A DNA stretch of 64,000 nt from an uncultured Fibrobacterota bacterium (GCA_963753345.1 CAVWBU010000041.1:225323-289322), one strand, 5' to 3'; counted from the first letter of the stretch, positions 43,406 to 63,596 are shown. The notes: generated from the letters alone by a model not told the origin. A program made the numbers and translations.

Positions 43406-43573
43406 ACTTGAAGTATGGAAGTTTAACTTGTAATTTGCAAGATATATGCAATAAGTCATTTCATCAAGAACGCCCTACCATTGGCACGTGCTCGTTCCGT
43501 AAAGAACACTGCCGAGGACCTTCGGCGGCACGGAATTTGTCATTTTAGGTCACCCGGGGCACCCGAGCGTAGG

Positions 43574-43645
43574 TCGGCGCGGCGGAGCTTACCTTTCGTG
43601 TTCGGCATGGGAACGGGTGTTTCCTCCGCGCAATAACCACAAGAA
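43574..43645 (-). repeat. 5' part of 5S rRNA (about 72 nt, 5 mismatches)
   Basis: tcggcgcggcggagcttacctttcgtgttcggcatgggaacgggtgtttcctccgcgcaataaccacaagaa aligned by eye to 46417-46488. Confidence 0.92.
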
Positions 43646-44632: not shown

Positions 44633-45068
44633 ATGCCTCTCCTTTGTTGAAGTGGAAAGACTGATAGTGATTTCCTTTTTTCGTGACTGATAACTGATAG
44701 TGATTTTCTTTTTTCGCAAGCGAGCGGGCGTATAAGGAGAGTTTCTTTACAGACGCTCATTTGTCCCCTGTTTTCCCGCCCCTGTCCTCCGTCGGGGATT
44801 TCTGCGTCTTCAGGCACTTCCCCCTCGTCAGGGATTTCCAAAGGTCACAAGGATCGGAGGCATCTCCGTCTGCATCTTGACCGGCATCAAGGAACAATAT
44901 AGCTATTTATTCGGACAATTGTCAAATTGGGAAATACCGGTCTTTCTGGCTCCGGCTCGAAGCCTAATAAGGGGCTGGATTTTTCAGGCGCAGATCGTTT
45001 CGTGAAGCAAAACAACATACAAAAAAAAATAAGCCCCCGACGCTTTCGCATCAGGGGCCTTAATTTAA

Positions 45069-45182
45069 TCTGGCGGCGACCTACTCTCCCGCACAGTTGC
45101 CCATGCAGTACCATCGGCGCGGCGGAGCTTAACTGCCGTGTTCGGTATGGGAACGGGTGTTTCCTCGACACAAAAACCGGAA
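45069..45182 (-). rRNA. Second 5S rRNA copy: 3' 98 nt identical, 5' end diverged (possibly non-functional)
   Basis: 45069-45166 matches the operon 5S; own terminator at about 45031-45061. Confidence 0.8.
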
Positions 45183-45289
45183 ATTGGCCTCTGCCGGGAC
45201 GTCAATGGCACACGCGTGGGGGGATTGGTCATACAGGCCACCCGTCGCGCTATGATTTTCATGAATGTTCTCGCCAAAGTGTTCAGTCA

Positions 45290-46361: not shown

Positions 46362-46371
46362 CTTAATTTAA

Positions 46372-46487
46372 TCTGGCGGCGACCTACTCTCCCGCACAGT
46401 TGCCCATGCAGTACCATCGGCGCGGCGGAGCTTAACTGCCGTGTTCGGTATGGGAACGGGTGTTTCCTCCGCGCAATAACCACCAGA
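46372..46487 (-). rRNA. rrf: 5S rRNA
   Basis: TCTGGTGG...CCCATACCGAACACGGCAGTTAAG...GAGAGTAGGTCGCCGCCAGA with paired ends. Confidence 0.97.
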
Positions 46488-51882: not shown

Positions 51883-54228
51883 TTATGCGACGGACTGCTG
51901 CTGATACAGGTATTTCTGAAACCCCGCAAACACCTTCCCTATCTCCTCCGGCTTACCCAGATCGTCCACGGCATCTGCAATCGAATCGTGATACTTGAGC
52001 CGCAATAGAGGCGTTAGCTTCTCCTGGTCAAGCTCCTCCACACCGACCGCCACGTAATGTGACAGAACGAAGTCGAGAAAGACTTGGAGTTTGCTGTTGA
52101 AATGCGTGCTGATGATCACCTTTGCTTTTACGGCGCGCTCTTCCCGAGTAAGCGGCGTCATGGCATACGCCACATGCGCCAGCACATCGAAAATATCGCT
52201 CTTTTCGGCATCGATAATCTTCTGCATCTCGGCCAACTGCTCATTGCCAAAACCCTTCTCTGCGAGACCCTGCAAGAGTTTTTTCCGTGTATCCGGAGCG
52301 CTCCACAGTGTGCGGAGTTCATTTTCATTCTTGAAGAATTCCGGCAGCTTGCCAAACAGGAGTTCCATAAACTGCTGCGCCGACATCGGTGTTCCGTCGG
52401 GATGCCAGAAGGTCGTCACCATCATGTGCTGAATTGTCCGTTCCTTGCCATCGGCTAGTTTCACTTTTATCTTCTTCTGGCTGTCTCGCTTGCTGTTCCG
52501 GCGGTTCCCGCATTTCCGGACGGGCACGGAATAGCTTCGGCGGAGGAGACACGCATAACCCGGCATCCTTCGGTTCTCCGGCTCAATGGGTTCGCCGTCC
52601 CATTCGGGGTCGCTGAAATGGTGATGCGCCTTCACAAAATCATAGATCGTGAAATAATCTTTTCCGTCGTACAGGCGTGTACCGCGCCCTATAATCTGCT
52701 TGAACTCAATGATGGAATTGATCGGCCGCATAAGGACGATATTGCGGATGTTGCGTGCGTCCACGCCTGTGGCGAGCTTCTGCGACGTGGTGAGGATCGT
52801 CGGGATGGTCTTCTCGTTGTCCTGGAATTCACGCAGGTGCATCTCTCCGAGCTCGCCATCGTTTGCCGTCACCCGCTGACAATAGCTCGGCTCTTTGCTG
52901 GTTTTCATCTGGTTGATGAGGTCTCGCACAGCCAGTGCATGGTCCTGTGAGGCGCAAAACACCAGCGTTTTCTCGTTCTGGTTGATCTGGTCCATGAATA
53001 TCTTCACACGGTGGGCTTCCCGTTCCTTGATCTCGATGATCTTGTTGAAATCGGGTTCCGTGTAGAGCTTTCCATATTCGACTTCACCCTCCATCACACG
53101 GTCGTCCGGCGTATACACGTACTCGTCAAGCGTTGTGGAAATCTGTTTCACCTTGAAAGGCGTGAGGAACCCGTCGTTGATACCTTCCTTGAGAGAATAG
53201 ATGTATACCGGGTCGCCGAAGTATTTGTAGGTGTCCACGTTATCTTTACGCTTGGGAGTGGCGGTCATACCCATTTGCACAGCAGGAGCAAAGTATTCCA
53301 GAATGCCGCGCCAATTGCTCTCGTCGTTCGCGCCGCCGCGATGGCACTCGTCAATCACGATGAAATCAAAAAAGTCCTGGGGGTATTCTCCAAAGTAAGG
53401 AGATGGCTTGCCATCCTTTGGCGGGCCGCTCATAAACGTCTGGAAAATAGTGAAAAAAAGGCTGCCGTTGGTTGGCACTCGTCCCTTGTGCCGGATACTA
53501 TCGGGCTCGATTCGTACCAGCGCGTCCTCGGGAAAGGCAGAGAAGACGTTATAGGCCTGATTTGCGAGGATGTTCCGGTCTGCGAGGAAAAGTATGCGCG
53601 GACGACGGGATGGTTCACGGCTCAGGTTCCAACGGCTATGGAACAGTTTCCAGGCGATCTGGAACGCGATAAACGTCTTCCCTGTGCCGGTAGCCAGCGT
53701 GAGCAGAATACGGCGCCGGTCTTCTGCTATGGCCTCCATCACACGATCAACGGCAATGTCCTGATAGTAGCGGCTCGGATGAGAGCCGCCCTTGTCCTCA
53801 AACGGTACGCTGGAAAAACGGTCGCGCCAAGCGTTCACTTTTGCAAACGTCATGTTCCAGAGTTCGTCCGGCGTGGGATAGCGCGGCTTCTCCCCCTCCT
53901 TGCCGGTCTCCATGTCGATGCCGTAGATGCCTTTGCCGTTAGTGGCATAGGTAAAGCGAACGGCCAGCTTGTCGGCATAGTTCTTTGCTTGCGCGACACC
54001 TTCCGTCAGCTCTTCATCCCAGGCTTTAGCTTCGATCACTGCCAGTTTACGGGTGCGATAGACAAGAACATAATCTGCGATGAGCGGCTTGCCACGCCGA
54101 CCATGGCCTTCGATACGGCCCGGCGAAATGGAATATTCCCGCAGGACCTTGCTCCCGTCAACAACGCCCCAGCCTGCGGCTTTGAGCGCGGGGTCGATGT
54201 GGTCAGCGCGGGTTTCGGCTTCGTTCAT
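51883..54228 (-). CDS. hsdR: Type I restriction subunit (EcoAI/EcoEI-like)
   Basis: MNEAETRADHIDP, ADYVL...VIEAK, LATGTGKT, DECHRG, TATP, QIIGRGTR. Confidence 0.93.
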   Translation of the reverse strand: MNEAETRADHIDPALKAAGWGVVDGSKVLREYSISPGRIEGHGRRGKPLIADYVLVYRTRKLAVIEAKAWDEELTEGVAQAKNYADKLAVRFTYATNGKGIYGIDMETGKEGEKPRYPTPDELWNMTFAKVNAWRDRFSSVPFEDKGGSHPSRYYQDIAVDRVMEAIAEDRRRILLTLATGTGKTFIAFQIAWKLFHSRWNLSREPSRRPRILFLADRNILANQAYNVFSAFPEDALVRIEPDSIRHKGRVPTNGSLFFTIFQTFMSGPPKDGKPSPYFGEYPQDFFDFIVIDECHRGGANDESNWRGILEYFAPAVQMGMTATPKRKDNVDTYKYFGDPVYIYSLKEGINDGFLTPFKVKQISTTLDEYVYTPDDRVMEGEVEYGKLYTEPDFNKIIEIKEREAHRVKIFMDQINQNEKTLVFCASQDHALAVRDLINQMKTSKEPSYCQRVTANDGELGEMHLREFQDNEKTIPTILTTSQKLATGVDARNIRNIVLMRPINSIIEFKQIIGRGTRLYDGKDYFTIYDFVKAHHHFSDPEWDGEPIEPENRRMPGYACLLRRSYSVPVRKCGNRRNSKRDSQKKIKVKLADGKERTIQHMMVTTFWHPDGTPMSAQQFMELLFGKLPEFFKNENELRTLWSAPDTRKKLLQGLAEKGFGNEQLAEMQKIIDAEKSDIFDVLAHVAYAMTPLTREERAVKAKVIISTHFNSKLQVFLDFVLSHYVAVGVEELDQEKLTPLLRLKYHDSIADAVDDLGKPEEIGKVFAGFQKYLYQQQSVA

Positions 54229-54268
54229 GATATTCAATGTAGAATGGACAATTGATAATGGACAATTA

Positions 54269-54628
54269 TCAACGGCCAATCCCTTGTTTGGTTGAGTTGA
54301 TGATGCTGGTAAGTAATTTCAAGAGTTCCTTGTTGGCATCTATGAAAGATTCAGCTTCGTTGGTATTTAGATAGCCGGTTTCCCGAAGAAGCAAAAACCA
54401 GTATTCCGTTTCGTTGGCTTCCTTGAGAGCTATCGCCATCTTATGAATAAAATCAGGTTTGCTTTCAGCCTGTTCCGCCTCACGGACCAAGGCACCGATT
54501 GCCGTGCCGGACCGCAACAATTGTTTGGATAATACACGTTCCTTCTTCTCAGTAGATAATTGCTTATACAGGTTCACAACCCGAACTGCAAACGTAAAGG
54601 CCTTGGTTTGAAGTGCTCCGTCTCTCAT
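54269..54628 (-). CDS. Four-helix-bundle protein (23S IVP/bAvd-like)
   Basis: KQLLRSGTAIGALVREA, DFIHKMAIALKEANETEYW; flanked by heptamer repeats. Confidence 0.88.
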   Translation of the reverse strand: MRDGALQTKAFTFAVRVVNLYKQLSTEKKERVLSKQLLRSGTAIGALVREAEQAESKPDFIHKMAIALKEANETEYWFLLLRETGYLNTNEAESFIDANKELLKLLTSIINSTKQGIGR

Positions 54629-54629
54629 T

Positions 54630-54806
54630 ATTCATTATCCATTGTTCGTTGGCAATTGACAATTGATAATGTACAATGGTCAATTATCATCGGGCAATCC
54701 CGTCTTTCATTGTCCATTGCTCATTGTCCACTTTCGATTGATTATTGTCAATCATTTATTTTCTATTGTTCATTGTCCACTTTCAATTGTTCATTGTCAA
54801 TTGTCC
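54630..54806. repeat. Degenerate 7-bp tandem repeats (CATTGTC/AATTGTC); partner tract at 54236-54270
   Basis: cattgtccattgctcattgtcc..., caattgttcattgtcaattgtc. Confidence 0.85.
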
Positions 54807-56070
54807 CGTGAATGCCTGGTGAAGAAGGGATTTTTTCAACGTCATCAAGCGCGGCGAGTTTCTGTTGGTAGATGGATTCGAGGTGTTGGGTTTCTTGCAA
54901 CGTAGCTTCGCAATTTCCCAGCTAATCGCGATCTTGCTCTCGGCGAGGTGGTACAGGAATCGGCATAACTCTAGTATCTACAATTGACACGCATTTGGTT
55001 GCATCAAGGTATTTACTCGCTCCTTGACATGAGTCTGAGAACTGCATTCGTAGTTAAGTGAGTAAAATAGAAATCGTCGTGCAAATAGTCTTGGGCGAAT
55101 CAGCGAGCTGTATTGCACAGCGACACGCTGGTTCAGAAGCGCACCATCATAATTCATCGGGTACAACCGCGACCTTGACCCAACGGCGATACATCGTGCG
55201 GGTCAAGGCAACAACATACGCCATTCATCAGCCGATAGCTTCGTCAAATATTGTCAAAAGTTATCGGGGAATCGCTGTCCATTCACTAACAAACTCTCCG
55301 ATCCAAATTAGTGACTCTTGATGCATTTTATGCCGTTTTACGTGAGCAATCCGTACTTTCGAATGCATATTACCATTTAGAATCAAAGCGGAAAAGTAGC
55401 AAGTGGTTTTTCAGCTCCAACCCTCCCCCATTGAGAAAAAACGAATTGCAGATGGCTTTCAAACAGGGCCCGCGCATTCTGCAGATTCTTTTCGGCGTTG
55501 GCTTTGGCGGTGGCGATGCCCTCAAACGCTTTGTCAAGGATGCCGACGATGCGGTGCTGTTCGGGAAGCGGGGGGACAGGAACCTGGGTATTTCTCAACT
55601 TGATTTGCGAAATACTTCCTTGTGCGTTTCCGGTGGCTTGCTCCACCAATTCATCTTTTCATGAAAGCAGAAAGAAGAAAAACAAACTCTGGGACGAAAT
55701 GGTTGTATCGGCAATATCCCGCATACTGCTTGATTCGTGGTTGCCTCAAACCGCGTTGGGTACTTCCCACTAGACCAGCTGTTACCGGAGCGCGACATTG
55801 CCACTAAGACCGTATCCTTCGGCAAATATTTTGGCAGAAGAATTCTCAAGTCCGCAATTTTGTAATAAATTTTGTAGCGGACCGAATTTCACCATTGACT
55901 CACTTCACTGAATTCAGGAACCAAGGAATTGTCCCTCCTTCGTAGTATTCCTTTTTAGCCATAAGCGGCGTACCACCCGCACCGGTTTGACAGACATCCC
56001 CCAGCCTTTTTATTTCCCACCCATCCTTCCCATTACTCCCATTCTTCCCATTACTCTCATTCTTGCTCAC
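54783..56070 (-). pseudogene. hsdS: Type I specificity subunit, multiply frameshifted as assembled
   Basis: GTG...GWEIKRLGDVCQTGAGGTP...EYYEGGTIPW; VPPLPEQHRIVGILDKAFEGIATAKANAEKNLQNARALFES; ends LKKSLLHQAFTGQL. Confidence 0.85.
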
Positions 56071-56145
56071 AGCATCCCCCGAATCTTCCCCAGCACCTCC
56101 GCGCTCTCCGCCGCTTCTCCAAAACCCCGTTTTTTCATTCCCCGC
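56064..56145. repeat. hsdM 3'-end direct repeat (other copies at 56770-56851 and 57396-57438)
   Basis: 82 bp with 1 mismatch to 56770-56851; 43 bp with about 5 mismatches to the hsdM end. Confidence 0.93.
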
Positions 56146-56776
56146 TCCTTTGCCCTTCCCTCGCCTGCAACCTCGCCCTTGTCATTCGCTCCCGTAAACC
56201 GCCCTCTTTCAGAAAATCCTGCTCCAAACGGCGGAGCTGTTGGTCAACCAGATAGTTGGTCTGGTGTATAAGGCAAAGCGCGATGTTTGCAACAACTTCG
56301 GGCGGGCGGGTTTCCACGAACGTGCGGTAGTCTTCATACGTTTGCGGCGTTTTGCGGCCCAGGTTTCGCACGTACTGCGCCTCTTTGGAGTCTTTGTCCC
56401 AAATGGGCAGGTCGCGCGCGCGAAGAAAGTCTTTGTAGTCGTCCAGCAATTCTTCAAGACTGGCCCGCGCCACGTTGGTGAGCTTGATCTCGGTTTCCTT
56501 GGATGTCAACGCGGCCTTGCTGCCCTCCAGAATATTCTTTTTCCCTGATCGGGCAGACTGCACCATTTGATCGATGGTGCGGTCCCCCTTAGCAAGAAAC
56601 TTATGCGCGAAGCGGAAGGTGATATCATAAATAACTTCGGCCTTCTGGAAAGACAGCAGTGTCTGGTAGTCGCCTCGGGGCGGTATTATAGGATGGGAGT
56701 TATGGGAATGATGCGACGGATGATGCCCGCTCATCATATTTATCCCATTCTTCCCATCACTCCTATTCGTGCTCAC
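56135..56776 (-). CDS. Four-helix-bundle suffix-domain protein
   Basis: RTIDQMVQSARSGKKNILEGS, VARASLEELLDDYKDFL, FLKEGGLRERMTRAR. Confidence 0.85.
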   Translation of the reverse strand: MSTNRSDGKNGINMMSGHHPSHHSHNSHPIIPPRGDYQTLLSFQKAEVIYDITFRFAHKFLAKGDRTIDQMVQSARSGKKNILEGSKAALTSKETEIKLTNVARASLEELLDDYKDFLRARDLPIWDKDSKEAQYVRNLGRKTPQTYEDYRTFVETRPPEVVANIALCLIHQTNYLVDQQLRRLEQDFLKEGGLRERMTRARLQAREGQRSGE

Positions 56777-57399
56777 AGCATCCCCCGAATCTTTCCCAGC
56801 ACCTCCGCGCTCTCCGCCGCTTCTCCAAAACCCCGTTTTTTCATTCCCCGCCCCATTCCTTCAATTTTTTCCTCCAGGCTGCTGCCGAATTGCCGTTTGA
56901 GTTCGCGCAATGCCCAGTTCTGGGTTGTCGCTTCGATTTCATAGAAGCTGCGCTCATCATGGTTGTTGATGCTCAGGAGAAAAACGTAATGCGACCAGCT
57001 CAGGGAAAACGGGGTTTTCGCAGGAGGTAATGGCGCATTCACCTTGTCCGATTGTGCAGACGGTGTCTGCGTTTTCTTTGGGGAAGGTAATTGCGCAGAC
57101 ACTGTCTGCGTAATTGCGGATTGACGTTTTGCATAGTATACATAAAAACGCCGCATGAGTTCGAGGTTCCGCTTTGAAAACCCGTCTCCGAATTCCTTCG
57201 TCAAACGTTCCGAAAGAGTTTTGAGAACCAGTTCCCCATAAGCCGCCCTGACCTTACCTCTTTGTTCTTCTTCAACAATGCGCCGGCCGATTTCAAAGTT
57301 TGTGTGAACCTGTACCAGATCGATCCCGCGCGCCACCGTTGTGCGGGCTGAGCGTATCAATTCACGAATTTCCTCGACAAACGATTTGCTCAGGTTCAC
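56773..57399 (-). CDS. DUF1016/YhcG N-terminal domain only, fused to an hsdM-like tail
   Basis: EIGRRIVEEEQRG, GFSKRNLELMRRFY, LSWSHY, RSFYEIEA; ends ESAEVLGKIRGML. Confidence 0.82.
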   Translation of the reverse strand: MNLSKSFVEEIRELIRSARTTVARGIDLVQVHTNFEIGRRIVEEEQRGKVRAAYGELVLKTLSERLTKEFGDGFSKRNLELMRRFYVYYAKRQSAITQTVSAQLPSPKKTQTPSAQSDKVNAPLPPAKTPFSLSWSHYVFLLSINNHDERSFYEIEATTQNWALRELKRQFGSSLEEKIEGMGRGMKKRGFGEAAESAEVLGKIRGML

Positions 57400-58851
57400 A
57401 GCAGCCTCCTGATTTTCCCCAGCACCTCCGCGCTCTCCTTATCCAACTTCGCAATCTCGTCCATAATCACCTTCGGGCTTCTGTGCTATTACTTCTTCCC
57501 CGCCGTTCGGGTTCTTCACCGACAAATCAAACGTCTCTTTGTCAACCCCCTTTGCATCCACGCTCCAGCTCTTCGGCGAATCAGCGGATTTCTTTTGCAG
57601 CTTTACAAATTCCGCAAGGTCGTCGTCGTTGAGCGGATTGGTCTTGCCCAGGTTGCGGCCCGGATCGAGCTGGTAGTACCAAATCTTATGTGTCGGCGCG
57701 CCCTTCTCAAAAAAGAGAACCACGGTCTTCACGCCTGCGCCCAGGAACGTGCCGCCGGGACAGTCGAGCACGGTGTGCAGGTTACAGCTTTCCAGCAGGA
57801 GCTTACGTAAAGATGTGGACGCGTTGTCGGTATTGGAGAGAAATGTGTTTTTTATGACCACACCGGCCCTGCCGCCTGCCTTGAGCATTTTAATGAAGTG
57901 TTGCAGGAACAAAAATGCCGTCTCGCCGGTGCGGATCGGGAAGTTCTGCTGGACCTCATTGCGTTCCTTGCCGCCAAACGGAGGATTGGCAAGGATAATG
58001 TCGAAGCGGTCTTTTTCCTGTATGTCGGCAAGGTTTTCCGTAAGCGTATTGGTATGCAGGATATTCGGCGCCTCAATACCGTGCAGGATCATGTTCATGA
58101 TCGCGATGACGTATGCGAGTGATTTCTTCTCTTTTCCGTAGAATGTGCGGGTCTGGAGCATGGCGAGGTCTTTTGTGGTGAGCTTTCCATTTCCCTTCAT
58201 ATACACAAACGACTCGCACAGGAAACCTGCCGAACCGCAAGCGCCGTCGTAGATGCGTTCGCCAATGCTGGGCTTGACCACCTGCACCATGGCGCGTATG
58301 AGCGGGCGCGGAGTGTAATACTCGCCGCCGTTGCGCCCGGCGTTGCCCATGCGCTGTATCTTTGCTTCGTAGAGATGCGACAGCTCAAACTTCTCCGTCT
58401 GGGAGCGAAAGCGCAGCTCGTCTATGTGGTCAATGATCTCCCGCAGGTTGTATCCGCTGGAGATTTTATTTTTGATTTCCCCGAATATCTCCCCTATTTT
58501 GTATTCGATTGTGTTGGGGCCGCTGGCCTTTTCCTTGAACTTGTGCAAGTAGGGAAACAGTTTGTTGTTGACAAAATCACGTAGATCGTCGCCGGTTTGG
58601 GCGGCGCTGTGGTCGAGCTTGCCGTCTTTTCCCTTGGGCGCGGCCCAGGTTTCCCAGCGATATGGTTTATCAAGGATGTAGGCGTATTTCTTGCCGTCCA
58701 GCGCGGCTTCATCGGCGCGGTCCTGCTCCAGCCCGTCAAGGTATTTCAGGAACAGCAGCCACGAAGTCTGTTCCGTGTAGTCAAGTTCGGTAGTGCATCC
58801 CGCTTCTTTCCAGAGGACATCGTCTATGTTTTTGAAGGCTTGTTCGAACAT
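57396..58851 (-). CDS. hsdM: Type I methyltransferase subunit; frameshift near 57485
   Basis: GEYYTPR, DGACGSAGF, NPPF; alternate frame gives the expected end HRSPKVIMDEIAKLDKESAEVLGKIRRLL. Confidence 0.93.
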
Positions 58852-59183: not shown

Positions 59184-59639
59184 CTACCCCAGCAAGTCTT
59201 TGTCGATCTTCTTAACGACAGGGCTTTCTTTGATGGCTTGAACAATCTTATCTTTCAATTCTTGTGGAATATCTGCATCTCGACGTTCAACTGAAAAGGT
59301 TTCTCTCACGACAAGGTATCTAAACGTTTCAAGATCAAACGACATGGCAAGATTGCATTCGACTACAGTTTCAGGGTTGGTGAGAAAGGAAAACGTTCCA
59401 GGAAGAATTGGAATGAGGGAATTCATTGCCGCATTATCCCCGGTCCTTTCATAATGTTCAATTCTGCTGTGCAGTTGGCTTGTTATAATGCAAACCAGAA
59501 TCACAGTCTCGCGGCCAACAGGAACACCCACCCAAAAGTGAGGCTTAGGGTCACCTTTTCTCTTAAAATGGCAGATTGAAAAACCGCGCTTGGGAATTTG
59601 ATTGAAGAGGGCGACGAACGGGTCGAGCCGCGCACTCAC
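59184..59639 (-). CDS. Putative toxin partner of a Panacea antitoxin (possibly PemK/MazF-like)
   Basis: Starts 3 nt after antitoxin stop; KPHFWV...VILVCIITSQ...ETVVECN pattern. Confidence 0.6.
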   Translation of the reverse strand: MSARLDPFVALFNQIPKRGFSICHFKRKGDPKPHFWVGVPVGRETVILVCIITSQLHSRIEHYERTGDNAAMNSLIPILPGTFSFLTNPETVVECNLAMSFDLETFRYLVVRETFSVERRDADIPQELKDKIVQAIKESPVVKKIDKDLLG

Positions 59640-59642
59640 GGA

Positions 59643-60236
59643 TCAACAATCCGTGAAAAGTTCGCGCGCCTGTTCCACATCGGCCTTCGTCAGGCCTAAT
59701 CGCTCGTCAATAACGCTGAAAAGCTCTATCTCCGGGATCTTCCTTCTAGGATTCGATCTAGGCTCCGCCTTGAAGACGTGCTCGTGCTTTTTCCATTCGG
59801 GGTATTCGTGCGTATAGTCACGAAGAGCAAAGGATCCCATTGCTCCGAATTCCTTGAGCGTAAAGTCAAGCGCCTTCTTATCGGAGTCCGAAAGGAGTTC
59901 AAAATCGCATCTTTGGTTTCTGCTCCTATACGAATCCTCGAATTTTTCCAGGTGGCGCTCTACGCTTGAGAGCACATCTCCGGCCAGTGAGTTGGTCCTG
60001 TTGTCGTCAAACGACAAAATGTTTTTAGCCATCAGGCCAACAGGCCCCATTTTCCTTGCCCAATATTCATCCCCGGTGACCGTGCGCCCATAGTGCAAAA
60101 GGTGGTATTTGTCGGAAAGAAAAAGAAGCTTGATAATCTGAATTCTGTCGAGCTCTCTATGAGATCTCAACAGGTACAAAATCGCTTGAATTACGGTGAG
60201 TGCTGTTTTCTGCATGATTCGAGCCCGATGGAACAT
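59643..60236 (-). CDS. Panacea (SocA/DUF4065) antitoxin-domain protein
   Basis: IIKLLFLSDKYHLLHYGRTVTGDEY...MGPV; LRDYTHEYPEWK. Confidence 0.85.
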   Translation of the reverse strand: MFHRARIMQKTALTVIQAILYLLRSHRELDRIQIIKLLFLSDKYHLLHYGRTVTGDEYWARKMGPVGLMAKNILSFDDNRTNSLAGDVLSSVERHLEKFEDSYRSRNQRCDFELLSDSDKKALDFTLKEFGAMGSFALRDYTHEYPEWKKHEHVFKAEPRSNPRRKIPEIELFSVIDERLGLTKADVEQARELFTDC

Positions 60237-63212: not shown

Positions 63213-63596
63213 TTACATTGCGAGCGCCAAATCAAACGCCCTGCTCTTCTGTGCAGCCCGGTAACCGAACAGCCGTGAGTCGATGAGGCTGTCCTGATCC
63301 CCGTTTCCATCATGGTCGATATGTTCTGCGAAACCGTTTACAAGGTCCCATCCGCTGCGACCATGATTACCTTTCCCGCTGCGGTACAATTCAACCACAC
63401 GCTCCCTCGCGTTCTTGGAACGGGTTGAACCGGAGTCAGGAATCAGTTCGTCAAGGAACTGCCTCACCTGCCGCTCATTGATTGTTTTGTGCGCGAGGAT
63501 TTTCGCCTTATTCACGAACAGGCCGAATGAGGTTATGGACAGGTCGAAACTGATAGAAGTGGATGCTGACTTTTGTATGCTATTGGGAAAAATCAT
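63213..63596 (-). pseudogene. C-terminal fragment of a DUF932-like protein
   Basis: GRSGWDLVNGFAEHIDH...SRLFG...KSRAFDLA; N-terminus absent. Confidence 0.55.

Follow-up and report, generated by a model that had tools for sequence, protein, structure and literature searches.

Partial copies of an hsdM 3' end beside passenger genes in type IB restriction-modification operons: a decayed example in an uncultured Fibrobacterota bacterium

How do unrelated passenger genes enter type I restriction-modification (R-M) operons, and how does the operon continue to function around them? Such passengers are well known, whereas their entry route and the continued function of the operon are not. The question is raised by a 64,000-nucleotide (nt) stretch of DNA from an uncultured Fibrobacterota bacterium (GCA_963753345.1, CAVWBU010000041.1:225323-289322; hereafter the window, with all coordinates counted from its first letter), which contains an EcoAI-type (IB) type I R-M operon. 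Its genes lie on the minus strand in the order hsdM, truncated DUF1016, a four-helix-bundle gene of the suffix type (4HB-suffix gene), hsdS, a plain four-helix-bundle (4HB) gene and hsdR, and the 3' end of the methylase gene hsdM is found there in three copies, designated tails A, B and C. The tails are probably insertion scars that have been kept as portable translation-start modules and that are also substrates for recombination. A reusable copy of the hsdM end would answer both parts of the question, as it would provide both the start signals of the following gene and the homology through which genes are gained and lost.

An earlier note on this DNA, made from the sequence alone, had placed hsdM-end sequence at three positions, and this was borne out. 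A 21-nt core (GGAGAGCGCGGAGGTGCTGGG, minus strand) is present without mismatch at 57418-57438, 56795-56815 and 56089-56109, against a chance expectation of 0 (0/100 dinucleotide shuffles with any match at up to 2 mismatches). Copies B and C are, as the note had also stated, 82 nt long with 1 mismatch (56794/56088); their similarity extends to 120 nt at 93% (56738-56857 compared with 56032-56151), and copy A differs from C at 5/43 positions and from B at 6/43. Direct repeats of the hsdM 3' end are present at both insert borders, and no copy beyond A, B and C was detected in the whole assembly (4.5 Mb, 55 contigs), where the next matches had E>1. The features of the operon, including open reading frames (ORFs) and the scores of the copies against a hidden Markov model (HMM) of the tail, are as follows.

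57396..58851, minus strand: hsdM, type I methylase (Pfam N6_Mtase 3e-61 and HsdM_N; assembled frame 58851-57439)
57396..57438, minus strand: tail copy A, the real hsdM 3' end (..ESAEVLGKIRRLL-stop; tail HMM 30.7 bits)
56773..57399, minus strand: truncated DUF1016 ORF, 208 amino acids (aa) (PF17761 2.9e-37, 128.3 bits; no YhcG_C)
56841..56873, minus strand: relic of the native DUF1016 C-terminus, RKKLKEWGGE-stop, in another frame than the current ORF
56770..56851, minus strand: tail copy B, right-hand border of the DUF1016 cassette (made up of the old stop, a spacer, a relic of the hsdM tail and GTGA; tail HMM 22.8 bits)
56135..56776, minus strand: 4HB-suffix gene (TIGR04258 84.6 bits, cutoff 40; TIGR02436 27.4 bits, cutoff 24)
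56064..56145, minus strand: tail copy C, duplicate of B (81/82 nt) including the DUF1016-type stop and spacer (tail HMM 25.4 bits)
56067..56138, minus strand: 23-codon relay ORF MKKRGFGEAAESAEVLGKIRGML (overlapping start and stop codons at both ends: ATGA with the stop of the 4HB-suffix gene, GTGA with the start of hsdS)
54763..56070, minus strand: hsdS pseudogene (Pfam Methylase_S on two fragments; conserved pieces in at least three frames)
54269..54628, minus strand: plain 4HB gene between hsdS and hsdR (TIGR02436 99.2 bits)
51883..54279, minus strand: hsdR, EcoAI/FtnUII family, type IB (NF046051 827.4 bits, cutoff 550; intact)

Each copy terminates in GTGA, and at each GTG an ORF opens: DUF1016_N at 57399, the 4HB-suffix gene at 56776 (the GTG of copy B) and an hsdS fragment at 56070. 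The stop/start overlaps are thereby GTGA at 57399-57396, 56776-56773 and 56070-56067, together with ATGA at 56138-56135. The earlier claim that the GTGA is both a stop and the next start applies to the ORF at each GTG, but not to the assembled frame of hsdM, which stops before copy A. Shine-Dalgarno-like runs precede the start codons by 5-6 nt, AGGAGG in A (5 nt before GTG) and GGGGGA in B and C. Both the 4HB-suffix gene and hsdS open with approximately 13 codons of 9-nt repeats, which are covered by the B/C repeat; in hsdS these are the first 13 codons (56020-56064), with a TRF period of 9/18, like the 5' end of the 4HB-suffix gene. In EcoKI, hsdM and hsdS are translationally coupled through a 1-nt stop/start overlap (PMC3510504). 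The same overlap principle is seen here, with ATGA or GTGA overlaps at every junction, and differs in that the junction module is copied and reused for inserts, sometimes via a relay mini-ORF, with coupling predicted from the sequence.

Copy A is the real hsdM 3' end, and B and C would be relic hsdM ends that mark the right borders of two inserts at the hsdM-hsdS junction. Copy B is composed of the old DUF1016 stop (GGGGAATGA), a short spacer and an hsdM-like ESAEVLGKIRGML-stop segment. In other loci, similar spacers stand downstream of a full DUF1016 gene (L094) and of DUF1016 remnants (L095, L102), each leading into a partial hsdM end with a stop that overlaps the hsdS ATG; this indicates that B is the native right flank of a DUF1016 insertion. 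Homology between the spacer of B and those of other DUF1016 flanks is probable; a CGGGGT..GGAGAA stretch visible by eye was not aligned by MAFFT. The DUF1016 ORF of the window aligns to the full-length protein of L105 only to about residue 175 and is without the YhcG_C PD-(D/E)XK nuclease domain present in L094, L105 and L144, while the relic C-terminus in the other frame is comparable to the ends of L094 (KKKLIEWTAGKDGGDE-stop), L102 (LKLEEWAREVGDE-stop) and L105 (QQKLMEWIEERGGGYE-stop). The end of the alignment and the native C-terminus in another frame point to an internal-deletion derivative that reads through its old stop into B. What had been labelled a DUF1016-N gene is accordingly an internally deleted DUF1016, and the hsdS of the earlier labels is split into several frames. 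Copy C keeps the DUF1016-type stop, which now terminates the 4HB-suffix ORF. DUF1016 would have been the first gene in, with B as its native right flank, and the 4HB-suffix gene would have come later between two copies of this flank, B and C; as these agree at 81/82 nt, the 4HB-suffix step is likely to be recent.

To place the window among homologous loci, 299 relatives of the 4HB-suffix gene were identified in a genome collection and the best 80 were analysed. These 80 are 71-89% identical to the window gene, and their hosts belong to Verrucomicrobiota, Planctomycetota, Kiritimatiellia, Chloroflexota, Armatimonadota, Desulfobacterota, Binatia and others. In 24/80, it comes immediately after an hsdM resembling that of the window (up to 88% identical), and hsdS and/or an EcoAI-type hsdR is found downstream in these 24 operons where the flank permits. 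A profile of the 24 hsdM ends (the tail HMM) was searched against 18,615 six-frame peptides, with a threshold of at least 8 bits for a second tail. Strong matches were confined to the gene strand, where they marked the ends of hsdM, the interval from the 4HB stop to hsdS, or the position immediately ahead of a 4HB gene. Second tails after the 4HB gene were identified in 11/24 operons (L030, L035, L036, L040, L049, L051, L065, L066, L068, L071 and L072, where L066 and L068 are near-identical), and weaker matches were at the same place in L037, L038, L083 and L087; L020, L029 and L070 were not judgeable. L036 has three tails, in the order hsdM-tail, 4HB-suffix gene, tail, ParE pair, tail, hsdS. 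A Smith-Waterman DNA scan of the 60 nt before the 4HB start against the downstream sequence misplaced starts (e.g. L022, L040), and its counts were not used in favour of the tail HMM. Within L040 (4600-4900), a junction unit of ..ALLK-stop plus ATGAAGAACCGCCCGCC stands in tandem after the 4HB-suffix gene, with 9-nt-repeat hairpin modules between.

Outside R-M loci, the 4HB-suffix gene lies between unrelated housekeeping genes (53/106 neighbour ORFs scanned) and is therefore a mobile, stand-alone gene. Such housekeeping-gene insertions are many and occur in distant phyla, one being L016:941-1564, where the gene (81% identical) is placed between two nitrogenase-component-1-type genes. A search of PDB sequences with the 4HB-suffix protein gave no match below E 0.01. 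The window's own genome contains one 4HB-suffix gene and one hsdM of the EcoAI-type family, hence no in-genome donor. Five genomes of the same genus were also compared; three were without a match to the locus and the rest had only approximately 70% DNA identity, so they provide no orthologous 'empty site'.

A second comparison was based on hsdM. From a metagenome collection with 575 hsdM relatives, the best 80 loci were analysed, and hsdS was visible in 59. It directly follows hsdM in 50/59, and an insert is present in 9. The earlier expectation that intervening genes vary between homologous loci was supported: where an insert is present, type IB operons carry DUF1016, the 4HB-suffix gene, HepT-like plus MNT, a ParE pair or ORF6N at this junction. 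The DUF1016-class metagenome inserts are full (L094), remnants (L095, L102) or divergent (L144), and HepT-like inserts are found in L098, L110, L161, L167 and L169, three of which have a visible MNT nucleotidyltransferase partner. Across the 80 loci, all 77 tail-HMM matches of at least 8 bits were on the gene strand, against 0 on the opposite strand. Second tails at this threshold were detected in 3/9 insert-bearing loci, all DUF1016-type, and in 0/50 direct hsdM-hsdS junctions. The variety of inserts indicates that the hsdM-hsdS junction is an insertion hot spot at which a relic hsdM end is frequent and not obligatory. Two DUF1016 proteins of the phylum sample, L183 (..EWGKAMV-stop) and L186 (..GRALR-stop), have C-termini that resemble the last codons of second tails elsewhere; in these loci the last codons of the tail seem, from the sequence, to survive fused to DUF1016 where the tail middle was lost.

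Three further arrangements were observed at this junction. L183 (G041, reverse strand 1365-2699) has an hsdM in which the first 46 codons are fused to the last ~29, followed by a full DUF1016; it is an internal methylase deletion that retained the tail. In L173 (G004, same genus; 400-1500), hsdM and hsdS are separated by a HepT-like and MNT pair, and no stop divides the frame of MNT from the hsdS frame that it runs into. Repeats of 7 nt (..IIDNG-stop / LTMDNGQMTM) are inserted at the extreme hsdM end in L095 (6440-6560), adjoining a decayed DUF1016.

The extra tails share several properties. In 17/18, the stop codon overlaps the start (ATG or GTG) of the gene that follows. With L068 left out, 7 of 17 open on an ATG that overlaps the stop of the cargo gene, 4 more start within 13 nt and 1 is fused to the cargo ORF. 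Compared between loci, second tails agree better in their 3' halves (0.75) than real hsdM tails do (0.59-0.63). The tails before cargo are of the IR type in 12/14, and those before hsdS of the IK type in 9/14. In L071 the second tail is typical and the locus's own hsdM tail is divergent (18/42 identical), and distances between 4HB-suffix genes show no correlation with those between hsdM genes (Spearman 0.13, Mantel p 0.24, 12 loci). Taken together, these comparisons indicate that the copies are not simple local duplications, and that cargo, hsdM and tail-plus-hsdS have been reassorted.

Loss of cargo through the repeats was seen once, among Logan contigs of other samples (4 runs) that were compared with the window. 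A peat-metagenome contig of 1071 nt, X1, is 96-97% identical to the window and contains copy C, the 4HB-suffix gene and the right part of B, after which position 56794 is joined to 57418 in hsdM. It is without the DUF1016 segment; the joint lies inside the A/B repeat with 21 ambiguous letters, and the skipped 623 nt is the exact A-B spacing. The assembler word length is 31, and a repeat of 21 nt, being shorter, cannot have caused a false join. As copy C of X1 retains the DUF1016-type spacer, X1 most likely descends from a DUF1016-bearing form via recombination between A and B. The X1 contig represents a relative diverged by 3-4% and not a read-level variant of this genome. A further record (X2, record 11) goes back 706 positions, so that the 3' end of the 4HB gene is connected via the repeat with the 5' end of the gene, and was considered as a circle or tandem copy. 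It was set aside as a probable graph chimera, since its halves diverge unequally (16/436 and 0/228) and the shared repeat is longer than the word of 31. The segment 56844-57347 is covered by no contig of the 4 runs, a gap that is not evidence of absence.

The proposed course of events begins with the normal junction of this operon family, in which the hsdM stop overlaps the hsdS start (ATGA) and the last hsdM codons (I-R/K-x-L-L) carry a purine-rich Shine-Dalgarno-like run. A gene landing at the junction would use the genuine hsdM end to start its own translation, and a partial copy of that end would be left, or brought in, ahead of hsdS. The partial copy would retain the Shine-Dalgarno-like run and the stop/start overlap, often ending a short relay ORF begun on the stop codon of the insert. 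It would be kept ahead of hsdS as a source of the same start module, while the remaining tail decays. Because tail copies are direct repeats, homologous recombination can also act on them, removing the gene between them and perhaps putting it back. Gain via the repeats is possible, and the route we prefer for it would be a circular or homologous donor carrying a tail. The first tail-cargo-tail arrangement may have arisen by a single crossover between the resident tail and a circular 'tail + gene' molecule, or a donor 'hsdM end + gene' may have been joined illegitimately upstream of the tail already in place; either route fits the IR/IK asymmetry.

Several observations weigh against this scheme. 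The compared loci share ancestry and are not independent, so the counts overstate the support. A second tail is not required for an insert: none was found with HepT/MNT inserts (0/5 metagenome loci, nor in G004), at the DUF1016 loci L144, L183 and L186, or after the 4HB gene in L013 and L074, and the expectation that inserts are always followed by an hsdM-end copy failed on these loci. Insert-bearing loci thus divide into many with the repeats, including the three-tailed L036, and others without. In a scan of the phylum with a 28-residue tail profile (296 genomes), several tails per locus were seen only in G000 among the best matches listed, weak second tails being beyond the reach of this profile. 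Five of the 17 extra tails are without a start codon in frame. An obvious translation role is confined to the last ~15 nt, and the conserved ALDAESAEVL part lacks an explanation. Tail identity averages 0.73 within a locus and 0.72 between loci, and as tails of one locus are no more alike than those of different loci, the copies do not in general continue to exchange sequence. In RNA folding, the tails (z -0.26 and -1.37) did no better than shuffles, and a hairpin at the 4HB 5' end (z -1.74) was not significant. In the window itself the assembled hsdM terminates ahead of copy A and hsdS is disrupted, which precludes coupling there.

If the tails were neutral leftovers of imprecise insertion, for example where a donor 'hsdM 3' end plus cargo' entered a resident hsdM end by homology-facilitated illegitimate recombination, they would have no expression role and only an incidental one in rearrangements, and would be decaying. 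Their range from at least 20 codons to ~8 codons or nothing would then be expected, as would the many insert-bearing loci without a second tail and the missing in-frame starts, and the IR/IK difference would reflect donor and recipient alleles. We regard this as rather unlikely. The likeness of second-tail 3' halves between loci, the overlap kept in 17/18 and the last codons that seem to survive deletion of the remaining tail all suggest a constraint on the start region. A less probable source of the duplication is the 4HB-suffix element itself, as a small selfish gene with 9-nt-repeat ends and its own insertion mechanism, dragging or duplicating the adjacent sequence. The high identity of the gene over many phyla, its position between housekeeping genes and the 9-nt repeats on both sides of it in the window agree with this, and 6/46 copies outside R-M loci begin with, and so keep, a ..CTGCTATGA-type hsdM end (0.0048 expected per sequence window). 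However, DUF1016 and ParE cargo are associated with second tails with no 4HB gene between (L094, L095, L102, L036), flanking direct repeats were found in only 17/80 4HB-suffix loci by blastn-short, which is too insensitive for diverged tails, and we know of no enzyme for the 4HB-suffix family.

A dedicated integron-like, site-specific cassette system with the hsdM tail as its attachment site is very improbable. Serial cassettes with a repeated border (the window, L036) and promoterless cargo whose starts overlap the preceding stop do resemble one, but no integrase, invertase or transposase domain was detected in 53 window ORFs (12 + 41), the tail borders vary in length, and cargo is also stacked without tails, as are the two passengers of L182. 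Equally remote is an assembly artefact in which the B/C duplication or the DUF1016 segment would be a strain chimera in a metagenome-assembled genome. The genome is a 55-contig bin with 4.8% contamination, its hsdS has many 1-nt differences from related contigs, and 56844-57347 is contig-free, although a gap of this kind proves nothing. Against this, the order of C, the 4HB gene, the right-hand portion of B and hsdM is reproduced by the independent X1 contig, the DUF1016 relic end and spacer match other loci, and the other ~40 long ORFs of the window are intact.

Retained start modules that double as recombination substrates therefore remain our preferred account of the tails. The cassette slots of the earlier note, in which recombination adds or removes accessory genes, are partly supported, by the X1 loss at the A/B repeat and by the varied inserts, and limited by the fact that tails are not universal and that no dedicated machinery was found in the 53 window ORFs. 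A more far-reaching version is tentative: the hsdM tail as a recombinase-free attachment and expression module, with promoterless 'tail + gene' units (DUF1016 nuclease, 4HB-suffix gene or toxin-antitoxin pairs) that would enter related hsdM ends by homologous recombination, stack, be translated in relay and exit between tails. If this were true, type IB operons over many phyla would form a shared cassette platform.

The window's operon is a decayed example, and its value is as a pattern and not as a working system. By three-frame translation, hsdM has a 1-nt frameshift near 57486, about 20 codons from its end; the assembled gene stops at TAA 57441-57439, just before copy A and 43 nt before the GTGA, and owing to this shift the ...KLDKESAEVLGKIRRLL-stop ending is read in another frame. 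Of the three core genes, hsdM is thus frameshifted, hsdS is split and hsdR is intact. Related metagenome contigs lack the extra base at 57486 (X1), and X2 contigs have 1 nt fewer than the window hsdS at five places and 2 nt fewer at one. The hsdM frameshift and the small hsdS insertions are either real decay or a local consensus error; with the ~40 other long ORFs intact, the damage is local to the operon. The earlier proposal that hsdM-type coupling is preserved along the chain consequently does not apply to the window, where hsdM is frameshifted, DUF1016 truncated and hsdS a pseudogene, and finds its support in the stop overlaps of many homologous loci.

Integrative elements insert into the 3' ends of genes (tRNA, tmRNA and protein-gene attachment sites) and carry a replacement end. 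The tails resemble these in the direct repeats of the target 3' end around the insert, with the upstream gene complete, and differ in the absence of an integrase from the 53 window ORFs, in single-gene inserts of 0.6-0.7 kb and in variable repeat length. Integron cassettes are promoterless genes lined up behind a single promoter, and each has a border that can be recognised. Here no IntI was detected in the 12 + 41 window ORFs, and the borders would be relics of coding sequence and not attC hairpins. A promoter and terminator scan gave no convincing terminator between hsdM and hsdS, and promoter-like matches clustered in 7-nt arrays around the plain 4HB gene; neither result was used.

Passenger genes in type I operons, DUF1016 included, are known, and the repeated hsdM end as start module or scar would be the new aspect. 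In the hsd loci of C. jejuni, rlo and mlo ORFs are embedded in type I R-M operons (a passage of PMC5183652, citing Miller et al. 2005), and DUF1016 or RhuM genes between core hsd genes are mentioned in a passage of PMC9881135. The window is alike in having unrelated small genes between hsdM, hsdS and hsdR, with DUF1016 as a recurrent passenger; the passages concerned in PMC5183652 and PMC9881135 are silent on a repeated hsdM end after the passenger. A full-text literature search, whose coverage did not extend to Miller et al. 2005 itself or to REBASE, found no description of one. With the tail copies as a simple sequence signature, passengers could be located and their insertions dated. The copies would also tie the four-helix-bundle genes, which are widespread and lack an explanation, to a concrete site of insertion.

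Repeat-driven rearrangement of type I loci is also described for phase-variable hsdS shufflons or invertons (PMC7672463, PMC9881135). The hsdS shufflons use inverted repeats inside hsdS and an invertase, and alter specificity, whereas here direct repeats outside the target-recognition domains alter gene content. A test of the window for an hsdS inverton found as the only inverted repeats the 7-nt arrays around the plain 4HB gene, with no invertase in the window ORFs. These inverted arrays (54230-54806) bracket the plain 4HB gene (54269-54628) and contain many sigma70-like hexamer matches, and L146 has a 79% homologue of this gene at the same position between hsdS and hsdR. Compared with ORF-bearing 23S rRNA intervening sequences (PF05635), both 4HB genes of the locus belong to the family and are bordered by short-unit repeat arrays; here, by contrast, they lie inside a protein-coding operon, and the hsdM tail is not in the description of that element.

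Just upstream of hsdM, an ORF with a Panacea/SocA antitoxin domain (59643-60236) and an adjoining family-less ORF of 151 aa (together 59184-60236) form a candidate toxin-antitoxin pair, and a DUF932-family ORF lies at the far side of the island (63213-63596). The DUF932-family ORF and the patchy distribution of the operon in relatives are hints that the region of approximately 51.8-64 kb was acquired horizontally. Elsewhere in the window, three 5S rRNA matches (43551-43644, 45068-45184 and 46371-46487, with 56, 80 and 107 bits) are located downstream of a single 16S-23S operon, and two of the three may be extra or degenerate copies.

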